This document shows positions 3,101-34,014 of a DNA stretch of 64,000 bases, one piece after another (within the stretch, counting starts at the first letter, position 1; the number at the start of each line of letters is the position of its first letter). The DNA lies in the NCBI RefSeq assembly GCF_057098645.1, contig NZ_CM169472.1; one strand, 5' to 3'. The notes beneath the pieces were generated by a model. That model did no database searches. It was not told the origin of the DNA and worked only from the letters and a program-made list of their open reading frames with translations. The position numbers and the translations under genes were made by a program.

Positions 3101-6100
3101 CTCGACGTGCGTTAGACGTCACGTTGCTGGGATACTCTCCGTATTTGCCGGGTAGCAAAGAAATTGCACCTGAAAAAGCAGTGTTGATTGAAATGCCTGA
3201 GCTTCCTGTACGTCACTGGCGTTTGTCTGGTGGTGGAGAAATCGCCCGAGAAGAACGTCTGGAGTGGCTGGAAAGTAATGCGCTGATTCAACATGCCCGC
3301 GAGGAAGGATTATGGTCTACTCGCAGCGACCGACTGGCCCTGAAAGATAGCTGGTATCGTCTGGAGGAACACTCTGCGCAGAGAACGCCTGAGCAGAACC
3401 AGTTTAATGAAAAACAATTTAAGTCAGGCAAAGTTAATGTGCTGAACTGTTCCACGACCATGGAGATGGGGGTGGATATTGGTGGTATGAGTTTGGTGGC
3501 AATGAACAACGTTCCTCCAGCGCCGGCAAATTATTTGCAACGTGCAGGTCGCGCGGGGCGTCGTGGAGAGAGTGCATCTGCTGCCATTACGTTATGTAAA
3601 AACACGGCGCATGGAATGGAGGTATTCAAAGACCCCCTCTGGGCGTTCAACACTACTGCCAGTGCGCCACGGGTTCGTTTTGGGAGCAGTAGCATTGTTC
3701 AACGACATGTTAATGCCCAGGTTTTAGGTCTGTTTTTACGAGCTGAAGTTCCTGATGCGACAAAACTGAGTTGCAAATGGTTCTTTGAAGGTGATGAGAG
3801 CCAGTGTCTTCGTTTTCTTCATTGGTTAAATCACCAGGCCGATGAGCTGGCGGATAAACTTAAACGCCTTACTCAGGGAACCGTCCTGATGTCATTGACG
3901 GCAACCCAGCTCTTGACCCGCACACAAGCAATGATGCAGCAGGTTGATATCCGCTGGAGAAGCCAACTTGCGATACTGTTGGAAAATATCGAAGCGTTGA
4001 AGGCGGATAACAGCGCGTGGGAAGAAACGCCAGCAGGTAAAGCCATCGCTTATCAGCTTCGTGATTATCGCGGTGCATATCTGTTTTCTAAACTCATTAG
4101 TGAAGCGTTCCTGCCGGGGCATGGTTTCCCGGTTGGCGTAGTCAATTTCAATTATCTGACGGCAGATGAGCTGGAAAAACGTCGCGCAATAAAAGCCACT
4201 CAGGCTGACCCTAATGAAGGGGGAGAAAGCTTTTCTCGTCGTATTGAAAAATTGCCCAGCCGTGATTTGCCTACAGCATTACGCGAGTATGCGCCTGGTG
4301 CAGATGTGGTATTGGGCGGAAAAGTATATCGTTCCTCGGGCATTATGCTTGGCAAGGTGCTTGCCAGCGGGCAGGAGCTGTCAGGCGATCATCATATTCC
4401 GTGGTTCTGGCATTGCCGTAAATGTGGTGCGGGGGCAACCAGTACTACCCATCCTGTCGAATGTAGTCACTGCAAAGCGGATATACAGCAACTTGATGTG
4501 AAGCGTTATTTACAGCCTGTTGGTTTTGCGACAGATATTCGTTATCAGGCACATAATGATGTATCCATGCCTGCACAACTTCCCTGGAAAGATCCACGTG
4601 TTCTTGTACCGTCTTCGGTGTGGGTTTCTTTACCCGATGCTGGGCTAGGACGTTACCGTTTTAGCCATAGTGGGGAATTGTTCCACTTCAGTGAAGGGGA
4701 ATTTGGGCACGGCTACGCAATTTGCCTCTCATGTGGTCGGGCAGAATCTCAAACTCAACCCCAGCGTACCCCTGAAAATCTAAAGAACCCAGAGCGGGAA
4801 AATACGCATTACCTGTTGCGAGGGGGCAGTAACGATCGTCAGGGGAGCAATAAATTGTGCCACGGTCATGTGCATAAAGATCTGTGGTTGGGGTATAGCA
4901 GTCGTACAGATATGGTTGAGCTGCAACTTAATGATGATAATGGCCTGTTGATCCGTGATGAGGTTGCCGCGCGTTCCCTTGCGGTCGCTTTGCGTGAAGG
5001 GTTAGCGCATAAATTGGGTATCGAAAATACTGAGCTGGGCGTGACGACGCAGCAAGCGCGCGATATCAATGGCTATACCGGATATTCCATCTTCATATAC
5101 GACAATAATGCGGGTGGTGCAGGTTATGCAGTGCAATTGATCGACCATTGGGCTGATGTCTTTAATTACGCCAGAAAATTGCTCGATTGCAGTTGCGATA
5201 AATTTTGTCACCACTGCTTGCTCAGCTACGACAGTCAGCATTATGTCAACAGATTAGATCGTCACCATGCATTAACCCTGCTTACCAATGTACGGTTGCA
5301 GCGACTTAACCTCGCGCCAGAATATCAGTACTTCGGCGATGGTAGCCGGGTTGAAACTAACCCTCTGAGTTTACGTATTGCGCAATGCCTGAACAGCGAG
5401 ATTTATGACTCCTGCTCGCTGGTTCTTGCGGGGCCGCAGGAACAGTGGGACTTTGCCCAATGGCCATTATTTAAAGAGTTGCTCCAGTTTGCCTCCTCCG
5501 GTGGGAATGTTGAGTTGCTGGTGGCCACGCCGCTGGAAAACTTAACTGATAGCTCCAGACATCAGCTTTCCGCGTTGGCGGCGATGCCGGGAGGACGCTT
5601 ACAAGTGAAATCCATTGCCACTGCGCAACTCATGCAAGGAAAGGGGCGCTGGCTTGCGCAGGTGACTCGCGAAGGGCAAAGCCAACAGTGGGCCGCAGAC
5701 GACAGCGCTACCGTTGCCCCTGGTGAATTATGGGGACAAAGTGCGTCTTCACCAGTAGTGACACTTAAAGGAACGTCCGGAAAAACCTTCTCGGGTCAGA
5801 CCTTAAGTGCAGAAGATTTACTGCCCGCCTTACCCACCGGGGCGGTGCGCATCAATCTCTGTGAACAACTGGACGGGCCGCTGGAAGGTTTTGGTTCGCG
5901 TTTCTGGTCGTTAGTCACGCAACAGCACGCTGGCTGGAAGCAGGCATTTACCCGCCACAAAGAGATAACGCATGTTGAGTACAGCGATCGTTATCTTAAT
6001 AGCCCATTCACGGCGCGTTTGTTAGGTGAAATCTTAACCGAGCTGGTTGAACAGGGAATGGCGGAACGCGCCAGCCTCACTGTTTGCGTCAAAAAATTGG

Positions 6101-6462
6101 ATTACAACTCTCGCCAACACGACGCTCTCTATAACGCGTGGCTTAATGAGGAAGATCGTCAGCAGGTTGTGACCACTTTACTTGAAGAAGGATATCTGGG
6201 GCCTGCGTGGCCGGGAGCAATTAGCTGGTTAACGGGGGATAACCAGAGTACGGAGCATGGACGAGAACTGACAGTCACCTTCAGCGATGGCAGTCAGCAT
6301 TATGTCCTGCTCGACATGGGGCTTAGCTACTGGCGCTGTATTGAAGATACCTTCTTTGATTTTGCCCTGCGAGTACCGCAGCAAGTTGAACGGCTGGCAA
6401 ACACGCGAGCGCGAGCTGTTGCCCCGGGTAATGACCTTAGGAGTTATATTATCGCTGGATAA
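139..6462 (+). CDS. Giant SF2 DEAD/DEAH-box helicase fused to a DUF1998-like Zn-binding domain (DrmA-DrmB / DruE-like), 2107 aa
   Basis: 6324-nt ORF; AGGAG RBS at 129-133 five nt before ATG 139; upstream frame closed by stops. Walker A SGTGSGKTE, motif II VLDEAHSY, SAT motif, helicase-C QRAGRAGRRG. Downstream Cys clusters CRKCG...CSHC, CLSCG, CSCDKFCHHC typical of DUF1998. Confidence 0.85.
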   Translation: MSLMDVQQLHYAPLLNQLHQRAVRSVVSQLALRSKSLTHYLESQYFQPPGQEGSLLADPVFESTFGWMPADETMEDLRDKLISSPLVDALSKAPVPFRHQLTAWRTILEDKKSLLVSSGTGSGKTECFMVPVLEDLIRQQKSTRQSLTGTQAIFLYPLNALINSQQERLREWTRGFKGKIRFALYNGETRHTKYEIQEDQLKVPEQALSREAIYEAPPSIMVTNTTMLEYMLIRRKDAPIIEKSQGMLKYIVLDEAHSYIGSQAAELALLLRRVMQAFNVGPGTDKPVQIIATSATIGEDSPEGNKELAKFVADLAGVTERDVKVVRGYRQIPRVSESLIRHEYPTSLTSLKSLSPQDLYQQLCHYRVAQQLRQALTHPGRQAVRLSELLNVARRTWPDINHRELLQLLDLMARSREGELAFTPLRMHGFIRTLAGLWACSNKQCSHKAHELNQSDWPFGQVWFEQRQYCDCGAPVFEVLRCSGCGSAYLSAKEEMRGDGTNWLVAQPAAAEVDEFALDVDVYSEDEDNDELDNNSQFDRLIASDGEKYIISLEETTAGKIDSEAQKHYEINLLRPESRGEGRNNSFACVCCGDTQRKNNPLFRPLRLGAPFFLNEIIPTLLEFSPLPQTREEQLGPFNGRRLLTFTDSRQGTARISARLQQDADKATLRALCYQELANITEPSAKLSPAHCALLEKVISQFSVLPLKNSIDALKKAMAANEELSPTDIQALKIIEPMVSSLSTEHAEAMQILQANSGNQQKKTMSWQTLSEQLVGSVDLADRMRGSFKELSGLDLTKQQFADFCLYSEFGRRPKNAWTLESLGLVAIHYPFIDKVTTCPQDWKTLLPDPDKQLAEWRNLLKITLDFFIRENSAVFYENEQYPRWMGARFPVKMLQGPDKKNKGQKRDQLWPQIRDRHYNRVIKLLIAVFPAIQPEQAHWKSLVNHLMIEVWDAIRPCLRQFESGYQLDIKQQAEFYSPKQVWRCPYTRRALDVTLLGYSPYLPGSKEIAPEKAVLIEMPELPVRHWRLSGGGEIAREERLEWLESNALIQHAREEGLWSTRSDRLALKDSWYRLEEHSAQRTPEQNQFNEKQFKSGKVNVLNCSTTMEMGVDIGGMSLVAMNNVPPAPANYLQRAGRAGRRGESASAAITLCKNTAHGMEVFKDPLWAFNTTASAPRVRFGSSSIVQRHVNAQVLGLFLRAEVPDATKLSCKWFFEGDESQCLRFLHWLNHQADELADKLKRLTQGTVLMSLTATQLLTRTQAMMQQVDIRWRSQLAILLENIEALKADNSAWEETPAGKAIAYQLRDYRGAYLFSKLISEAFLPGHGFPVGVVNFNYLTADELEKRRAIKATQADPNEGGESFSRRIEKLPSRDLPTALREYAPGADVVLGGKVYRSSGIMLGKVLASGQELSGDHHIPWFWHCRKCGAGATSTTHPVECSHCKADIQQLDVKRYLQPVGFATDIRYQAHNDVSMPAQLPWKDPRVLVPSSVWVSLPDAGLGRYRFSHSGELFHFSEGEFGHGYAICLSCGRAESQTQPQRTPENLKNPERENTHYLLRGGSNDRQGSNKLCHGHVHKDLWLGYSSRTDMVELQLNDDNGLLIRDEVAARSLAVALREGLAHKLGIENTELGVTTQQARDINGYTGYSIFIYDNNAGGAGYAVQLIDHWADVFNYARKLLDCSCDKFCHHCLLSYDSQHYVNRLDRHHALTLLTNVRLQRLNLAPEYQYFGDGSRVETNPLSLRIAQCLNSEIYDSCSLVLAGPQEQWDFAQWPLFKELLQFASSGGNVELLVATPLENLTDSSRHQLSALAAMPGGRLQVKSIATAQLMQGKGRWLAQVTREGQSQQWAADDSATVAPGELWGQSASSPVVTLKGTSGKTFSGQTLSAEDLLPALPTGAVRINLCEQLDGPLEGFGSRFWSLVTQQHAGWKQAFTRHKEITHVEYSDRYLNSPFTARLLGEILTELVEQGMAERASLTVCVKKLDYNSRQHDALYNAWLNEEDRQQVVTTLLEEGYLGPAWPGAISWLTGDNQSTEHGRELTVTFSDGSQHYVLLDMGLSYWRCIEDTFFDFALRVPQQVERLANTRARAVAPGNDLRSYIIAG

Positions 6463-6469
6463 ATAATTG

Positions 6470-6496
6470 CTCCCCTGGGGATATCTTCCAGGGGAG
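6470..6496 (+). terminator. Stem-loop immediately after gene 1 stop (stem ctcccctgg / ccaggggag); possible terminator or RNA-stabilising hairpin
   Basis: 9-bp perfect inverted repeat with 9-nt loop starting 8 nt after the TAA at 6460-6462; no immediate U-tract. Confidence 0.3.
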
Positions 6497-6581
6497 TTGA
6501 CCCAGCTCACTTTTTAATAATTTTTGTTTGAAAATCATGCGCAATTTATGCGCATTCCCTCCCATTTTGTCACTTTGCCGG

Positions 6582-6617
6582 GGGCCTTCATGATATCTTT
6601 AAGGCCCTCTTTTTTAT
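6582..6617 (+). terminator. Candidate intrinsic terminator between gene 1 and gene 2
   Basis: gggcc...ggccc 5-bp stem with 16-nt loop followed by tcttttttat; weak stem and long loop. Confidence 0.3.
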
Positions 6618-6685
6618 CGCAGTGTGCCGCGCCACATTTTTCAGGATGACGTTACCGCCACTGCCCCAAATAGACAGAAAAACCG

Positions 6686-9544
6686 ATGAATAAGCAAAAT
6701 TATGCACCTGGTATGCGGGTGGTTATTCGTGATGCCGAATGGCGTATTCGCCGGGCGGATGACAGTGGTGATGGTGGGTATTTGCTGACCTGCGATGGTA
6801 TTTCAGAGCTTGTGCGCGGTAAAGAAGGGTTATTTCTGACCAAACTGGAACAAAAAGTAGAGATCCTGGATCCCGCAAAAACGCATTTGGTGGAAGATGA
6901 ATCCGCCAATTATCAAGCGGCGCAGTTGTATATCGAAAGTCAGTTACGCCAACGCGTACCGACAGACAGTAAAGTCCATTTTGGTCATCTGGCGGCGATG
7001 GATTCCATGCCGTTTCAGCTCGATCCTACGCGGATGGCGCTGGCACAACCGCGTCAGCGGATACTCATTGCCGACGCTGTCGGTCTGGGTAAAACGCTGG
7101 AAGCGGGTATTCTGGTTTCGGAGCTGATCCGTCGTGGGCGCGGAAAACGTATTCTGGTTCTGGCGGTCAAATCGATGCTGACACAATTCCAGAAGGAGTT
7201 CTGGAGCCGTTTTGCGATCCCATTGACCCGCCTGGATTCTGCTGGTTTACAAAAGGTGCGTAACCGCATCCCAACCAACCACAACCCGTTCCACTATTTT
7301 GACAAGACCATTATCTCCATCGATACGCTGAAACAAGACATTGAATATCGTCACCATCTGGAAAATGCCTGGTGGGATATTATTGTCATTGATGAGGCCC
7401 ATAACGTCGCAGAACGTGGAACCAGTTCGTTACGCAGTAAACTGGCAAAACTGCTCGCCGGGCGTAGCGATACGCTGATTATGCTTTCAGCAACGCCGCA
7501 TGATGGTAAGGCTGAAAGTTTTGCCAGCCTGATGAACATGCTTGACCCGACGGCGATCGCCAACCCGAAAGAGTATGAATACGCCGACTTTGCCGATAAA
7601 AATCTGGTTGTCCGTCGCTTCAAAAAAGACGTGAAAGATCAGATGTCCGGCGAGTTCCCCGAGCGCAATATTGTCAAATTGACTCGCCTGGCATCCGGTG
7701 CCGAAGAAGAAGCATACCGTCGTCTGGTTGAGAGCCAGTTCCGTGATGATGACGATGAACAGGCCCAGTCTAACAAAGGTCGTCTGTTCAAGATAACCCT
7801 CGAAAAAGCGCTATTTTCCAGCCCGATGGCGTGTGCCAGCGTCGTGGCGAATCGTCTGAAGCGTCTTGAGAGCCGTAAAGATCATAATAGCCAGAGCCAG
7901 ATCAACGAACTGGAGTCATTGCTGTTGGCGCTGAATAACATTGATGCCAGCCAGTTTAGCAAATACCAGTTGCTGCTCGACACCATCCGAAAAGACCTCG
8001 CCTGGAAAGCCAATAACACGGAAGATCGCCTGGTGATCTTCACCGAAAGTATTAAAACGCTGGAGTTCCTCGAACAGCAACTGCGAGCGGATCTGAAATT
8101 GAAAGATGACCAGATCGCCACGCTGCGCGGCGATCAGGGCGATACGGTATTGATGGAAACCGTAGAAGCCTTTGGTAAAACGCAGTCGCCGTTGCGTCTT
8201 CTGGTTTGTTCGGATGTGGCATCTGAAGGGATCAACTTGCATCACCTTAGCCACAAAATGATTCACTTTGATATTCCGTGGTCGTTGATGGTATTCCAGC
8301 AACGTAACGGGCGTATTGACCGCTATGGGCAAAAACATCAGCCCCAAATCCGCTATCTGCTTACTGAGGCCAGCGAACCACAGATCAATGGCGATATGCG
8401 CGTACTGGAAGTGTTGATCAACAAAGACGAACAGGCGCAGAAGAACATTGGGGACAGTTCGGAGTTTACCGGCAAATTTACCCAGGAAGAGGAAGAAGAG
8501 CAGGTTGCAGAGTTCATGATGCAGGATGATGGTGCCAGCCTGTTTGATCAACTGCTGAACAGCAACGTCTCGGAAAGCGCCGAACACGATCTGTTTGGCG
8601 AAATATGCAGTGCGGTTTCCAGCGATGCCTCAATGGTCACCGAAGCAGACACCAGCTTGTTTGCCAGCGAACAGGCGTACTGCGAAAGAGCATTGGGTTA
8701 CCTGAAAGCCAGTGGTCAAACTATCCAGTATGAAACCTTGCCTGATAATACCTTGTCGCTGGTGGCACCGGAGGAGTTACGCCGCCGCTTCAACCAGCTA
8801 CCGCCTGAAATCGCCCCGGAGAACTGGCAGCTCTATTTAAGTCAGGATAAAACCGTCATCACCGACGCGATTGCACGCGCTCGCGGTGAGCAACATGCCT
8901 GGCCCGATGTGCAGTATCTCTGGCAAATCAACCCGGTAGTGCAGTGGCTGGACGATAAAATCTCTTCGGCTTTTGGTCGTCATCAGGCACCAGTTATCCG
9001 TCTGCCATACCTGCTTGAACCCGATGAAGATCACTTCATTCTTTCCGGGTTATTCCCGAACCGTAAATCACATCCGATGGTGAACCCGTGGATAGTGGTG
9101 AGCTTTAACCGTGAATCGCTAATCGGCAGTCAGCCATTCGCTGAGTTTTTACAACGTCATCCGCAGTTGAGTAACAAGCTGACTAACAGCGGCGGTAAAG
9201 ATCGTAATCACCAACGCCAGCAGGATTTACTTGAAGCGGCTATTGCTCATGCCCGGGAGGTATTCATCCATGATCGGAATGCGTTTGAAACGCACATTAA
9301 CCAGCAACTGAATGAGCATCTGCAAAAGCTGGACGTTTTGCGTGGGCGGCAGTTGAGCCAACTTGAGCTGGATTTTGCCGATAATAAACAGCAATTGTCA
9401 GTCAAGCAGAGCCGTAAAGAGCAGAGACAACGCGAAATCGAACACAATTTTGACAGCTATATCGAATGGATTGAGGACACCATGACGACTGAAAAAGAAC
9501 CCTACATTCAGGTAATTGCTGTTATCACCGGAGCGGAGGGTTAA
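6686..9544 (+). CDS. SNF2-family (SF2) helicase/ATPase, DISARM DrmD-like, 952 aa
   Basis: 2859-nt ORF. Motif I DAVGLGKTLEAG, motif II IVIDEAHNV, LSATP, C-terminal FQQRNGRIDRYGQK characteristic of SNF2/RAD54-type ATPases. Confidence 0.85.
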   Translation: MNKQNYAPGMRVVIRDAEWRIRRADDSGDGGYLLTCDGISELVRGKEGLFLTKLEQKVEILDPAKTHLVEDESANYQAAQLYIESQLRQRVPTDSKVHFGHLAAMDSMPFQLDPTRMALAQPRQRILIADAVGLGKTLEAGILVSELIRRGRGKRILVLAVKSMLTQFQKEFWSRFAIPLTRLDSAGLQKVRNRIPTNHNPFHYFDKTIISIDTLKQDIEYRHHLENAWWDIIVIDEAHNVAERGTSSLRSKLAKLLAGRSDTLIMLSATPHDGKAESFASLMNMLDPTAIANPKEYEYADFADKNLVVRRFKKDVKDQMSGEFPERNIVKLTRLASGAEEEAYRRLVESQFRDDDDEQAQSNKGRLFKITLEKALFSSPMACASVVANRLKRLESRKDHNSQSQINELESLLLALNNIDASQFSKYQLLLDTIRKDLAWKANNTEDRLVIFTESIKTLEFLEQQLRADLKLKDDQIATLRGDQGDTVLMETVEAFGKTQSPLRLLVCSDVASEGINLHHLSHKMIHFDIPWSLMVFQQRNGRIDRYGQKHQPQIRYLLTEASEPQINGDMRVLEVLINKDEQAQKNIGDSSEFTGKFTQEEEEEQVAEFMMQDDGASLFDQLLNSNVSESAEHDLFGEICSAVSSDASMVTEADTSLFASEQAYCERALGYLKASGQTIQYETLPDNTLSLVAPEELRRRFNQLPPEIAPENWQLYLSQDKTVITDAIARARGEQHAWPDVQYLWQINPVVQWLDDKISSAFGRHQAPVIRLPYLLEPDEDHFILSGLFPNRKSHPMVNPWIVVSFNRESLIGSQPFAEFLQRHPQLSNKLTNSGGKDRNHQRQQDLLEAAIAHAREVFIHDRNAFETHINQQLNEHLQKLDVLRGRQLSQLELDFADNKQQLSVKQSRKEQRQREIEHNFDSYIEWIEDTMTTEKEPYIQVIAVITGAEG

Positions 9545-26573: not shown

Positions 26574-27290
26574 CTACAGTTTAAATGACACACCAATGCG
26601 ATAACTGTTTTCCGATAAATTATCTCTGCCGTTGTAAACACCCTGACGGTCCAGGTAGTCATATTCTATGTATGGCGTAATATCGGGCGTCATATGGTAT
26701 TGTAGAACAAATGCATTTTCCGTCGCCCATTTCTTATGGTTTGCATAGCGATAATCGTTCTGTTTGCTGTATAGCGTCGTTTGCCATGCGAAGGTGAAAT
26801 CACTATTAATATGGTAAGTGACATATCCATCCCAACGATGAACGTTATCACGAGACATATCACCGGATAAGTCTTGTTGTCGGTAAGCTTTCCAGTCGTA
26901 ACGATAGCGAATGCCAAAATTAAGATCTTTTGTCGCGTCCCAGGACAGTTTTACGTAGGGTCCGTAGCGTGTGCCGTTGCTGCTAAAATGCGTTAACATT
27001 CCCGGGCGCACCGTCCATTGATCATCAAGTTTAATCGCGTAATTAACTTCAACCTGAACATCATTGAGTGCGGCATTTTCCTTTTTATTATCATGAATGG
27101 TATTCCAGGTATTACTTTCCATGCTTGCCCACCATCCATTTTGCCATCCCTCACTGACTTTGAGTCGAGTCTCATAGGCGTGGCTTCCACTACGATATCC
27201 ACCACGTACGTCCAGTGTCGCAGCCTGAGAAATTAATGGTGACGAAAAGCACAGTAATAATACGCCAGAAAGTATTTTAGCCTTTTTCAT
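26574..27290 (-). CDS. nanC: N-acetylneuraminic acid outer-membrane channel NanC (KdgM family)
   Basis: MKKAKILSGVLLLCFSSPLISQA signal peptide and beta-barrel-like sequence; 238 aa; first gene of nanC-nanM-nanS. Confidence 0.85.
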   Translation of the reverse strand: MKKAKILSGVLLLCFSSPLISQAATLDVRGGYRSGSHAYETRLKVSEGWQNGWWASMESNTWNTIHDNKKENAALNDVQVEVNYAIKLDDQWTVRPGMLTHFSSNGTRYGPYVKLSWDATKDLNFGIRYRYDWKAYRQQDLSGDMSRDNVHRWDGYVTYHINSDFTFAWQTTLYSKQNDYRYANHKKWATENAFVLQYHMTPDITPYIEYDYLDRQGVYNGRDNLSENSYRIGVSFKL

Positions 27291-27710
27291 AAATTTCACT
27301 CATTTGTAGGATACAGAAAGCAATACAAAGCCCGCATAAACAATTAGCATTTATGTTGTGTAATATTTTTTGCCAGGCTTATAGTGTCTTTGGCAACGGG
27401 TAGCTTATTTTATATTTTTTGTATAAGGTCTCCTGTGAAAATTCTCTTTCCACATTATTTAAATAAACAGAGAGCCAGATTAAATACCTGAGTATAAAAT
27501 CTCTTCTGATGTTTAATTGATTTGAATGTTCGTAAGCTATATCACTTACTCAATTCATTTTACCCAGAGTCATAAAATAGAGTGTCTATTGATCTCATTT
27601 TCATATTCCTTTCAGACTGAAGTGCGTTTTCATCACCCGATGAGAAAGAACTGAAGTGATGTTTGCCATAGATTGCGAGATGCCCTGTCTCATTGACTAT
27701 CTTGGTGCAC

Positions 27711-27730
27711 CTTTATACCTGTTATACCAG
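27711..27730. promoter_or_regulatory. NanR operator-like GGTATA repeat (minus-strand GGTATAACAGGTATA) upstream of nanC
   Basis: Plus strand tatacctgttatacc = two GGTATA hexamers in the arrangement I recall for NanR operators; about 420 bp upstream of the nanC start. Confidence 0.5.
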
Positions 27731-28093
27731 ATCAAAAATCACGCAATCCATACAACAAAACCAGATTTGCAATTCGTGTCACAAAATATGTCGATCTTTT
27801 TCTAAGAGGAAGATGCCATGTGAAGCCAGACGAACACTTGCAGTGGTCTTCAAAAACTAAAGATCTTCTTTTAACTATTTGTTTTATAAAAATTTATTTA
27901 GAGTCTAAACAAGGGAAGCTTTGCAAGCTAACTCAGTGAGCTTGGTGAAAATCAGTGTTTACCCGCCATCAGGCTGAGCATAATTCTCATCATGAAATAT
28001 GTTTCCTGGTTTGTGGCTTGTAACTGGTCACTTCTGAAGTCGATCTGGAGAGGCTTGTTGATGTTGGTGTTTTCAGGATGATGTTTCACTTAG

Positions 28094-29289
<1,196 letters not shown>

Positions 29290-29942
29290 TTAGTTTGTTT
29301 GCCGTATCGCCCGGCGAATGGCTGTGATTGAGGAAGGTTTAAGTCGTAGTGACCAAAGCCATATTTACCAACGAATGTAGATGAAAAAATCGTTTCCTGC
29401 TTTCCCCCATATCTCCATGATAAAAAGGAATGTAACAATCTCATGGCCTAAACTGACGAACCAGCCAGGAATAATCGCTAGGGACCTAAGAATTAGCATG
29501 ATAATAGCCACTAAGAAATTACTGCGTTCCATGAAATAGCCATTTTGTGGCAAATGGAGTTGACTAATAATGTCATATGTGAGACGGCTAGTTGAACGAA
29601 TATTAAATTTTGCTGAATTTTTTATGTTGATTTTACTTGTTACAGAACATATCACATGATATATAGATAAGATTAGTTGCATTAATGATGAGGGTTATTA
29701 TTAGATTCGTATCCGATTGATAAATATATAAAGGTACATAGCATGCAAGAGCATAGCGTTTGTATGGCAACGTTATTATAATTAACTGTTGCTACTCCAT
29801 TTAAGTTCACTCAGAAGAACTGGTCCACTTACGTTAGTTATTAAACAAACGTTCGCTTTTATAAACATAATCAGGATAAAAATGTTGGATTATTGCTAAC
29901 CCAGCACAGCTAGTGCGCGTCTGTAATTATAAGGGAAAAACG

Positions 29943-30545
29943 ATGAAGAATAAGGCTGATAACAAAAAAAGGAACTTCCTGACCCATAGTGAAATCGAAT
30001 CACTCCTTAAAGCAGCAAATACCGGGCCTCATGCAGCACGTAATTATTGTCTGACTTTGCTTTGTTTTATTCATGGTTTCCGGGCGAGTGAAATTTGTCG
30101 ATTGAGGATTTCGGATATTGATCTTAAGGCAAAGTGTATATATATCCATCGATTAAAAAAAGGCTTTTCAACAACGCACCCGCTATTGAATAAAGAAGTT
30201 CAGGCTTTAAAAAACTGGTTGAGTATCCGTACTTCGTACCCGCATGCTGAGAGCGAGTGGGTATTTTTATCGCGTAAGGGGAATCCGCTTTCTCGGCAAC
30301 AGTTTTACCATATTATCTCGACTTCCGGTGGTAATGCCGGGTTGTCACTGGAGATTCATCCGCACATGTTACGCCATTCGTGTGGTTTTGCTTTGGCGAA
30401 TATGGGAATAGATACGCGACTTATCCAGGATTATCTTGGGCATCGCAATATTCGTCATACTGTCTGGTATACCGCCAGCAATGCAGGGCGTTTTTACGGC
30501 ATCTGGGATAGAGCCAGAGGACGACAGCGTCACGCTGTTTTATAG
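29943..30545 (+). CDS. fimB: Type 1 fimbriae switch recombinase FimB (tyrosine recombinase)
   Basis: MKNKADNKKRNFLTHSEIESLL..., 200 aa; HxxR and Y motifs near C-terminus; start chosen at ATG 29943 rather than the upstream GTG of the ORF track. Confidence 0.9.
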   Translation: MKNKADNKKRNFLTHSEIESLLKAANTGPHAARNYCLTLLCFIHGFRASEICRLRISDIDLKAKCIYIHRLKKGFSTTHPLLNKEVQALKNWLSIRTSYPHAESEWVFLSRKGNPLSRQQFYHIISTSGGNAGLSLEIHPHMLRHSCGFALANMGIDTRLIQDYLGHRNIRHTVWYTASNAGRFYGIWDRARGRQRHAVL

Positions 30546-31022
30546 AGATAGTTGAGATACCAGGGATGGTGTTAAAAACTACATTATTCTTACGATATAT
30601 CAAAAATGATTAACCATTTATTAATTGATGTTATTGTAAGTATAATTCTTAATTATCATAATAAACATTAAGTTAACCATATCCATACAAAATACAATGG
30701 TTTATGTTCTTCAAAATAAATAAACAAAATCATTCATAAATTTACACATCACTTAAATTCTCCTGTTTTCGCACTTTTTTCTTTATTTTTTAAGCAACTG
30801 GAAGTTAATCCACTGCAATCTATTGTTATATTGAATCAAATCAATGAAAATAGATGTTGTCACATCAGTGATATTTTATTTTTGTATGATATTTAATGTA
30901 ATTGACTGATAGCCACATCACTTCGTGTGTGGTTATCTTTTTATCTATTGGGCTAATTTTGACCGATTGAGGTTTCCTATAGGTATTCATTCAAATATAT
31001 CTCAGTTAGGAGTACTACTATT

Positions 31023-31619
31023 GTGAGTAAACGTCGTTATCTTACCGGTAAAGAAGTTCAGGCCATGATGCAGGCGGTTTGTTACGGGGCAACGGGAGCC
31101 AGAGATTATTGTCTTATTCTGTTGGCATATCGGCATGGGATGCGTATTAGTGAACTGCTTGATCTGCATTATCAGGATCTTGACCTTAATGAAGGTCGAA
31201 TAAATATTCGCCGACTGAAGAACGGATTTTCTACCGTTCACCCGTTACGTTTTGATGAGCGTGAAGCTGTGGAACGCTGGACCCAGGAACGTGCTAACTG
31301 GAAAGGCGCTGACCGGACCGACGCTATATTTATTTCTCGCCGCGGGAGTCGGCTTTCTCGCCAGCAGGCCTATCGCATTATTCGCGATGCCGGTATTGAA
31401 GCTGGAACCGTAACGCAGACTCATCCTCATATGTTAAGGCATGCTTGCGGTTATGAACTGGCGGAGCGTGGTGCAGATACCCGTTTAATTCAGGATTATC
31501 TCGGGCATCGAAATATTCGCCATACTGTGCGTTATACCGCCAGTAATGCTGCTCGTTTTGCTGGATTATGGGAAAGAAATAATCTCATAAACGAAAAATT
31601 AAAAAGAGAAGAGGTTTGA
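31023..31619 (+). CDS. fimE: Type 1 fimbriae switch recombinase FimE (ON-to-OFF)
   Basis: GTG start; MSKRRYLTGKEVQAMMQAVCYGATGARDYCL..., 198 aa; paralogous to FimB. Confidence 0.9.
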   Translation: MSKRRYLTGKEVQAMMQAVCYGATGARDYCLILLAYRHGMRISELLDLHYQDLDLNEGRINIRRLKNGFSTVHPLRFDEREAVERWTQERANWKGADRTDAIFISRRGSRLSRQQAYRIIRDAGIEAGTVTQTHPHMLRHACGYELAERGADTRLIQDYLGHRNIRHTVRYTASNAARFAGLWERNNLINEKLKREEV

Positions 31620-31666
31620 TTTAACTTATTGATAATAAAGTTAAAAAATAAATAAATACAAGACAA

Positions 31667-31980
31667 TTGGGGCCAAACTGTCCATATCATAAATAAGTTA
31701 CGTATTTTTTCTCAAGCATAAAAATATTAAAAAACGACAAAAAGCACCTAACTGTTTGATATGTAAATTATTTCTCTTGTAAATTAATTTCACATCACCT
31801 CCACTATATGTAAAGCTAACGTTTCTGTGACTCGACGCCTCTTCCTCATTCTTCTCTCCAAAAACCACCTAGTTCAATATAAAAAACTGCAAATAAAGAT
31901 AACAATAGAATATTAAGCCAACAAATAAACTGAAAAAGTTTGTGCGCGATGCTTTCCTCTATGAGTCAAAATGGCCCCAA
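31667..31980. promoter_or_regulatory. fimS invertible element (fim switch), 314 bp bounded by 9-bp inverted repeats; apparently in phase-OFF orientation
   Basis: TTGGGGCCA at 31667-31675 and TGGCCCCAA at 31972-31980. Sigma70-like -35 TTGAGA / -10 TATGAT(A) lies on the minus strand at 31685-31715 next to the fimE-proximal repeat, pointing towards fimE. Confidence 0.7.
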
Positions 31981-32099
31981 ATGTTTCATCTTTTGGGGGA
32001 AAACTGTGCAGTGTTGGCAGTCAAACTCGTTGACAAAACAAAGTGTACAGAACGACTGCCCATGTCGATTTAGAAATAGTTTTTTTAAAGGAAAGCAGC

Positions 32100-32648
32100 A
32101 TGAAAATTAAAACTCTGGCAATCGTTGTTCTGTCGGCTCTGTCCCTCAGTTCCGCAGCGGCTCTGGCCGATACTACGACGGTAAATGGTGGGACCGTTCA
32201 CTTTAAAGGGGAAGTTGTTAATGCCGCTTGCGCAGTTGATGCAGGCTCTGTTGATCAAACCGTTCAGTTAGGACAGGTTCGTACCGCATCGCTGGCACAA
32301 GAAGGAGCAACCAGTTCTGCTGTCGGTTTTAACATTCAACTGAACGATTGTGACACTACTGTTGCAGACAAAGCAGCTATTGCCTTCCTTGGTACCGCAA
32401 TTGATGGCACTCATCCTAACGTATTAGCTTTGCAGAGTTCAGCTGCGGGTAGCGCAACAAAAGTTGGTGTGCAGATCCTGGACAGAACGGGCGCTGCGCT
32501 GGCGCTGGACGGTGCGACATTTAGTGCACAAACAACCCTGAATAACGGAACCAACACCATTCCGTTCCAGGCGCGTTATTATGCAATTGGGGCCGCAACC
32601 CCTGGCGCAGCTAATGCGGATGCGACCTTCAAGGTTCAGTATCAATAA
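32100..32648 (+). CDS. fimA: Type 1 fimbrial major subunit FimA
   Basis: [23 protein letters not shown] signal peptide, 182 aa; start taken at conserved Met, not the upstream GTG of the ORF track. Confidence 0.9.
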
Positions 32649-32712
32649 CCTACCCAGGTTCAGGGACGTCATTACGGGCAGGGATGCCCACCCTTGTGCG
32701 ATAAAAATAACG

Positions 32713-33252
32713 ATGAAAAGGAAGAGATTATTTCTATTAGCGTCGTTGCTGCCAATGTTTGCTCTGGCCGGAAATAAATGGAATACCACGTTGCCCGGCG
32801 GAAATATGCAATTCCAGGGCGTCATTATTGCGGAAACTTGCCGGATTGAAGCCGGTGATAAACAAATGACGGTCAATATGGGGCAAATCAGCAGTAACCG
32901 GTTTCATGCGGTAGGGGAAGATAGCGCACCGGTGCCTTTTGTTATTCATTTACGGGAATGTAGCACGGTGGTGAGTGAACGTGTAGGTGTGGCGTTTCAC
33001 GGTGTCGCGGATGGTAAAAATCCGGATGTGCTTTCCGTGGGAGAGGGGCCAGGGATAGCCACCAATATTGGTGTAGCCTTGTTTGATGATGAAGGAAACC
33101 TCGTACCGATTAATCGTCCTCCAGCAAACTGGAAACGGCTTTACTCAGGCTCTACTTCGCTACATTTCATCGCCAAATATCGTGCTACCGGGCGTCGGGT
33201 TACTGGCGGCATCGCCAATGCACAGGCCTGGTTCTCTTTAACCTATCAGTAA
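32713..33252 (+). CDS. fimI: Fimbrial protein FimI
   Basis: [19 protein letters not shown] signal peptide, 179 aa; pilin-like. Confidence 0.85.
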
Positions 33253-33288
33253 TTGTTCAGCAGATAATGTGATAACAGGAACAGGACA

Positions 33289-34014
33289 GTGAGTAATAAA
33301 AACGTCAATGTAAGGAAATCGCAGGTAATAACATTCTGCTTGCTGGCAGGTATCCTGATGTTCATGGCAATGATGGTTGCCGGACGCGCTGAAGCGGGAG
33401 TGGCCTTAGGTGCGACTCGCGTAATTTATCCGGCAGGGCAAAAACAAGTGCAACTTGCCGTGACAAATAATGATGAAAATAGTACCTATTTAATTCAATC
33501 ATGGGTGGAAAATGCCGATGGTGTAAAGGATGGTCGTTTTATCGTGACGCCTCCTCTGTTTGCGATGAAGGGAAAAAAAGAGAATACCTTGCGTATTCTT
33601 GATGCAACAAATAACCAATTGCCACAGGACCGGGAAAGTTTATTCTGGATGAACGTTAAAGCGATTCCGTCAATGGATAAATCAAAATTGACTGAGAATA
33701 CGCTACAGCTCGCAATTATCAGCCGCATTAAACTGTACTATCGTCCGGCTAAATTAGCGTTGCCACCCGATCAGGCCGCAGAAAAATTAAGATTTCGTCG
33801 TAGCGCGAATTCTCTGACGCTGATTAACCCGACACCCTATTACCTGACGGTAACAGAGTTGAATGCCGGAGCCCGGGTTCTTGAAAATGCCTTGGTGCCT
33901 CCAATGGGCGAAAGCACGGTTAAATTGCCTTCTGATGCGGGAAGCAATATTACTTACCGAACAATAAATGATTATGGCGCACTTACCCCAAAAATGACGG
34001 GCGTAATGGAATAA
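33289..34014 (+). CDS. fimC: Periplasmic chaperone FimC
   Basis: GTG start; 241 aa; PapD-like chaperone sequence. Confidence 0.9.
   Translation: MSNKNVNVRKSQVITFCLLAGILMFMAMMVAGRAEAGVALGATRVIYPAGQKQVQLAVTNNDENSTYLIQSWVENADGVKDGRFIVTPPLFAMKGKKENTLRILDATNNQLPQDRESLFWMNVKAIPSMDKSKLTENTLQLAIISRIKLYYRPAKLALPPDQAAEKLRFRRSANSLTLINPTPYYLTVTELNAGARVLENALVPPMGESTVKLPSDAGSNITYRTINDYGALTPKMTGVME

Follow-up and report, generated by a model that had tools for sequence, protein, structure and literature searches.

The closest described system to the locus treated here is the fim switch of Escherichia coli, the invertible element fimS, in which the fimA promoter is located (PMC2647292). It is one of the most thoroughly studied invertible promoters. 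Two recombinases act on it: FimB inverts fimS both ways at a low rate, and FimE turns it from ON to OFF and dominates FimB (PMC2647292, PMC2845655). In the OFF state only, the fimE transcript is cut short by a Rho-dependent terminator located within fimS (PMC2647292, PMC2845655). Mechanistically, FimB and FimE would recombine two 9-bp repeats and thereby flip the 314-bp segment that carries the fimA promoter. Expression of fimB is itself regulated from a distance. Upstream of the fimB start site, at a distance of about 760 to 470 bp, are the operators of NanR and NagC; both proteins activate fimB, low expression of which limits OFF-to-ON switching (PMC3173223). The SlyA operators, of which OSA1 spans -179 to -168 relative to the fimB start site, affect fimB more than NanR or NagC (PMC3173223).

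The window, meaning the whole 64-kb stretch of DNA that was analyzed, contains a locus of this type. Its switch region and the adjacent genes comprise the following features, in order of position.

29943-30545, plus strand: fimB, bidirectional recombinase of 200 aa, identical to the K-12 protein at 200/200 residues.
31023-31619, plus strand: fimE, recombinase biased from ON to OFF, 198 aa, identical to the K-12 protein at 198/198 residues.
31622-31634, minus strand: predicted IHF site TATCAATAAGTTA from a consensus scan, just outside IRL, at the position described for IHF-1.
31667-31980, no strand assigned: invertible element fimS in the phase-OFF orientation, 314 bp, by homology to MG1655 fimS and in-silico assays.
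31667-31675, plus strand: IRL, the fimE-proximal 9-bp inverted repeat TTGGGGCCA, a 9-mer that is unique in the 64-kb window.
31686-31715, minus strand: candidate fimA promoter (PfimA) from a consensus scan, with the -35 hexamer TTGAGA at 31715-31710, an 18-bp spacer, and the -10 hexamer TATGAT at 31691-31686.
31699-31704, no strand assigned: single SnaBI site TACGTA inside the promoter spacer, used in the classical orientation assay.
31749-31761, minus strand: predicted IHF site TATCAAACAGTTA from a consensus scan, inside fimS, at the position described for IHF-2.
31945-31948, no strand assigned: single BstUI site CGCG close to IRR, in agreement with the description of the right end in phase OFF.
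31972-31980, plus strand: IRR, the fimA-proximal 9-bp inverted repeat TGGCCCCAA, likewise a 9-mer unique in the 64-kb window.
32100-32648, plus strand: fimA, major fimbrial subunit of 182 aa, intact, 92% identical to the K-12 protein.

fimS lies between the fimE ORF (31023-31619) and fimA, whose ATG is at 32100; the tyrosine recombinase genes fimB and fimE are immediately upstream of it, and downstream of fimA follow ORFs of the sizes expected for fimI, C, D, F, G, and H. The sequence TGGCCCCAA is the reverse complement of TTGGGGCCA, so that the two repeats are perfect over 9 bp, and the span from IRL to IRR is 314 bp. An intact element of this length with both repeats had been proposed in the initial annotation and is borne out. 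In its length, its 9-bp repeats, its position between fimE and fimA, and its orientation, the element is like that of MG1655. The fimE–fimA spacers of the two are colinear and share 98% identity, the repeats and the adjacent inner sequence being identical. The differences are about 15 substitutions within fimS, mostly central, a changed base and an A-run differing by one base just outside IRL, and a T-to-G change between IRR and fimA. Within fimS, the changes relative to K-12 concentrate at window positions 31870-31895 (alignment columns 272-292), and neither the ends nor the promoter vary.

The IHF arrangement expected of E. coli fimS, with one site beside IRL and one internal site, is found as well: a scan with the consensus WATCAANNNNTTR predicts both. 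The 800 bp that include the element hold a further perfect inverted repeat of 9 bp (pair I5), which arises by chance. Repeat and promoter statistics alone do not single out fimS, and its identification rests on homology. RNA families were searched for in Rfam, which gave no match in window positions 27000-34000.

The lineage of the window was addressed with a query of 901 bp around fimS, for which a match is found in 4725 of 5426 complete E. coli genomes; all matches fall under fimE and fimA features. Among the matches listed, 23 genomes are 100% identical over the whole query. These are mostly labeled O145 or O145:H28 STEC (RM12581, RM13514, and others), with fimE and fimA annotated. The 24 kb downstream are 99.8% identical to the same O145:H28-group genomes. 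Judged by these identities, the window is from a close relative of the O145:H28 STEC lineage and is not one of those assemblies.

The best σ70-like site in the region is the pair TTGAGA/TATGAT, which matches 10/12 consensus positions, lies beside the fimE-proximal repeat IRL, and is aimed at fimE in the molecule as sequenced. The whole stretch from TTGAGA to TATGAT, spacer included, is identical in MG1655. The two hexamers are presumably those mapped for the fimA promoter by Olsen and Klemm (1994). On the plus strand, a single promoter-like site is found; it matches 9/12 positions and is some 190 bp away from IRR, and the fimA-proximal end is thus weak. Hence, both the minus-strand promoter beside the fimE-proximal repeat, for which the initial annotation had allowed a spacer of 17 to 18 bp, and the weakness of the hexamers at the opposite end stand, the spacer being 18 bp. 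A perfect -35 hexamer, TTGACA, was noticed outside the element, at 32030-32035 between IRR and fimA, where a T-to-G change relative to K-12 has created it. It was considered as a fimA promoter that is independent of the switch and was rejected, since the scan gave no acceptable -10 partner.

The hexamers leave room for another reading, namely that the promoter belongs at the other end and that the sequenced state is really ON. Hexamers are weak evidence in AT-rich DNA, and in the AT-rich fim region four promoter-like sites are observed against 1.8 ± 1.1 in shuffles. A full-text literature search for the fimA hexamers returned nothing relevant that prints the -35 and -10 sequences or gives a mapped start. 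The orientation was therefore judged from two published restriction assays by in-silico PCR and digest, rather than by reading hexamers. In the SnaBI assay, the 601-bp amplicon (window 31541-32141) is cut into 161 + 440 bp; the published patterns are 440 + 161 for OFF and 403 + 198 for ON (PMC11724981). In the BstUI assay, the OL4/OL20 primers give a 727-bp amplicon (window 31408-32134) that is cut into 539 + 188 bp, and the published patterns are 539 + 187 for OFF and 433 + 293 for ON (PMC9993118). When the fimS core is inverted in silico, the BstUI fragments become 293 + 434, matching the published ON pattern. A colinear alignment places fimS in the same orientation as in the MG1655 reference.

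Both assays thus agree that the sequenced fimS is in the OFF state. They are independent of each other and calibrated on phenotype, against which the assignment of the promoter to the wrong end can hardly be maintained. In this arrangement, the candidate promoter points to fimE. As sequenced, the promoter would adjoin IRL and fire toward fimE, and fimAICDFGH would not be transcribed from PfimA. The initial annotation had called the element apparently phase OFF and had proposed the SnaBI digest and the comparison with a reference as checks. The call is upheld: the site at 31699-31704 is single, its fragments fit OFF as do those of BstUI, and fimS is colinear with MG1655. Taken as a whole, the locus is almost certainly the canonical E. 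coli type 1 fimbrial phase switch of an O145:H28 STEC relative, recorded OFF.

How ordinary this state is can be appreciated from its frequency in the species. With a full-length match defined as at least 80% of the query covered in one place, the OFF-form 901-bp query has such a match in 4453 genomes, and a synthetic ON-form query, in which the 296-bp core was reverse complemented, has one in 250. fimS therefore occurs in both orientations across E. coli genomes, and the 4703 scorable genomes are about 95% OFF and 5% ON. All 23 of the listed genomes with identity over the query are OFF; among full-length matches to the ON form, the highest identity is only 98.2%, and hence no genome of the query-identical group is ON. 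OFF is the default recorded state of E. coli fimS, so the state of the window is ordinary; the orientation is already known biology and the most common recorded state. An assembly would report the majority orientation of the sequenced culture, and as the ON-to-OFF drive of FimE dominates FimB, ordinary laboratory cultures, and hence assemblies, would be mostly OFF. A single assembly gives a snapshot of fimS, namely the orientation that prevailed in one culture, and this should not be taken for a phenotype.

A mutant form of the switch is described for O157:H7, in which a 16-bp deletion prevents inversion to ON (PMC8605689). A comparable genetic lock on the window's element, through damage to fimS or to the recombinases, deserves consideration, since O145:H28 also belongs to the EHEC group, both switches are OFF in assemblies, and no genome with identity over the fimE–fimA query is assembled ON. 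With an ON base rate near 5%, however, 23 of 23 OFF is an outcome of about 30% chance for a working switch. Unlike the O157:H7 switch, which the deletion holds OFF (PMC8605689), fimS of the window has its full 314 bp and both repeats perfect, and the inner sequence adjacent to the repeats equals that of K-12. The alignment to MG1655 has no gap inside fimS, so the 16-bp deletion of the O157:H7 type is absent. FimB and FimE show no difference from the K-12 proteins. A switch locked OFF is, on this comparison, very improbable. Since the two recombinases are identical to those of K-12 and the switching parts are intact, the switch should still flip; by its sequence, the locus should still be phase-variable and not locked. 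The sequenced culture would have been a mixed population in which the switch still flips.

Apart from the switch, the window carries an insertion upstream of fimB. The features of this part of the locus are the following.

27714-27728, minus strand: two GGTATA repeats, GGTATA being taken here to be the NanR motif, spanning -758 to -744 in native numbering, the reported location of the NanR operator.
28090-28093, no strand assigned: TTAG target-site duplication, left copy.
28094-29289, plus strand: ISKpn26-like IS5-family element of 1196 bp, with a transposase ORF at 28162-29142 (326 aa).
29290-29293, no strand assigned: TTAG target-site duplication, right copy.
29478-29504, plus strand: SlyA operators OSA2 (CTAGGGACCTAA) and OSA1 (TTAGCATGATAA), identical to the operator sequences that PMC3173223 gives.

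The element ends in GGAAGGTGCGAACAAG and CTTATTCGCACCTTCC, and it has the features of the IS5 family: it is about 1.2 kb long, is bounded by terminal inverted repeats of 16 bp, holds one transposase ORF, and is flanked by a target duplication of 4 bp. In other genomes, elements that match it carry the annotation ISKpn26 family transposase. It lies in the nanC–fimB spacer, upstream of the fimB start site by about 382 bp; the position of OSA1 at 29493-29504 places this start site near 29672, and the leader is accordingly 271 nt. In RM12581, the site is empty with a single TTAG, and the flanks are 100% and 99.9% identical to those of the window. Many plasmid copies of ISKpn26 appeared to have 26 bp of left flank in common with the window; this candidate was dropped, as direct alignment shows only the TTAR target and T-richness.

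By its position, the element separates the NanR/NagC operators from the fimB promoter, and the operator region is now a further 1.2 kb from fimB, across the element. The SlyA operators stay on the promoter side. Any effect of the insertion on fimB expression is one that we infer.

It had been proposed in the initial annotation that IS5 separates fimB from its activating sites and that the OFF state fits this separation. The first part holds as geometry, with the element at about -382; the link to OFF is unsupported. The corresponding explanation would be that the insertion causes OFF: cut off from the NanR/NagC sites, fimB would yield so little FimB that switching from OFF to ON ceases, and the strain would in effect be held OFF. 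In its favor speak the location of the element between the fimB promoter and operators that lie about 760 to 470 bp upstream, the role of NanR and NagC as activators of fimB, and the limitation of OFF-to-ON switching by low fimB expression (PMC3173223). Against it, OFF is found in about 95% of scorable genomes species-wide, and the query-identical relatives that were checked have no element in the spacer, RM12581 having the empty site, and are all OFF. The element is hence not needed to explain OFF, since the closest relatives listed are free of it and OFF too. Moreover, the SlyA operators, which are reported to act more strongly on fimB than NanR or NagC, are still beside the promoter.

The orientation of fimS was examined in 12 genomes with an IS5-family element in the fim regulatory region. 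With the element at the identical TTAG site (n = 4), H15 is ON, and SL124, JMF1, and LF3-1 are OFF; with the element elsewhere in the nanC–fimB spacer, 6/6 are OFF; and with the element between fimB and fimE (n = 2), F247 is ON and ME8067 OFF, a sample that, at 12 genomes and a base rate of 95% OFF, has no statistical power and serves qualitative use only. H15 is the telling case. Its fimS is assembled ON (6969-7282 in the numbering of the extracted locus), its FimB and FimE are intact, and the insertion is at the same TTAG site as in the window. The insertion therefore does not enforce OFF and is compatible with the ON state, and the notion that it causes the OFF state of the window is improbable. 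The orientation of fimS carries essentially no information on the insertion; in general, it should not be tied to nearby mutations without base-rate control.

The preferred reading remains that of an ordinary switch recorded OFF, next to which the insertion is a small strain-level difference that could interest workers on STEC adhesion. Tentatively, and rather as a possibility than as an expectation, the element at -382 might uncouple fimB from the sensing of sialic acid by NanR and of GlcNAc by NagC and thus alter the readiness for fimbriation in the gut, the TTAG site having been hit independently in several lineages, some with a later IS-linked deletion from fimB to fimA, and the orientation being ordinary.

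An ISKpn26-type element is present at the identical TTAG site in H15, SL124, JMF1, and LF3-1, whose flank haplotypes differ from that of the window. The flanks in the window are of the O145:H28 haplotype, whereas the complete O145:H28 genomes among those listed are without the element. Since these relatives lack it, the insertion in the window is probably an independent event, and the site comparison suggests that the TTAG site is hit recurrently by IS5-family elements. Such elements are also present elsewhere in the nanC–fimB spacer, or in the fimB–fimE spacer, of at least nine further genomes. All copies found are co-oriented with fimB, which is an artifact of the search, as the query carried the element that way round. 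Such recurrent insertion of IS5-family elements in the fimB regulatory region is only a mildly interesting by-product of this analysis.

The positions of these other elements vary. In TOE17 and APEC 102026, the element adjoins nanC; 702/18 and ST12468 have it at two further upstream sites of the nanC–fimB spacer; in MB22, it is closer to fimB, and in ES4, it immediately precedes the start codon of fimB. ME8067, a laboratory strain of K-12, has an IS5-family element in the fimB–fimE spacer, as does OV2 by search match only. ST12468 and APEC 102026 also show an apparent extra A just inside IRL, where the match reads TGGGGCCAAAACTG, at 6961-6986 and 6966-6991, respectively, in the numbering of the extracted loci. 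In EC05, the element has the same left junction as in the window and is directly followed by fimI, fimB, fimE, fimS, and fimA being absent (region 3366-4988 in the numbering of the extracted locus); this arrangement looks like an IS-adjacent deletion of fimB to fimA. The search match of CE0021a breaks off at the same point as EC05. JMF1, besides its ISKpn26 upstream of fimB, contains an IS1 between fimB and fimE, at 6050-6747 in the numbering of the extracted locus.
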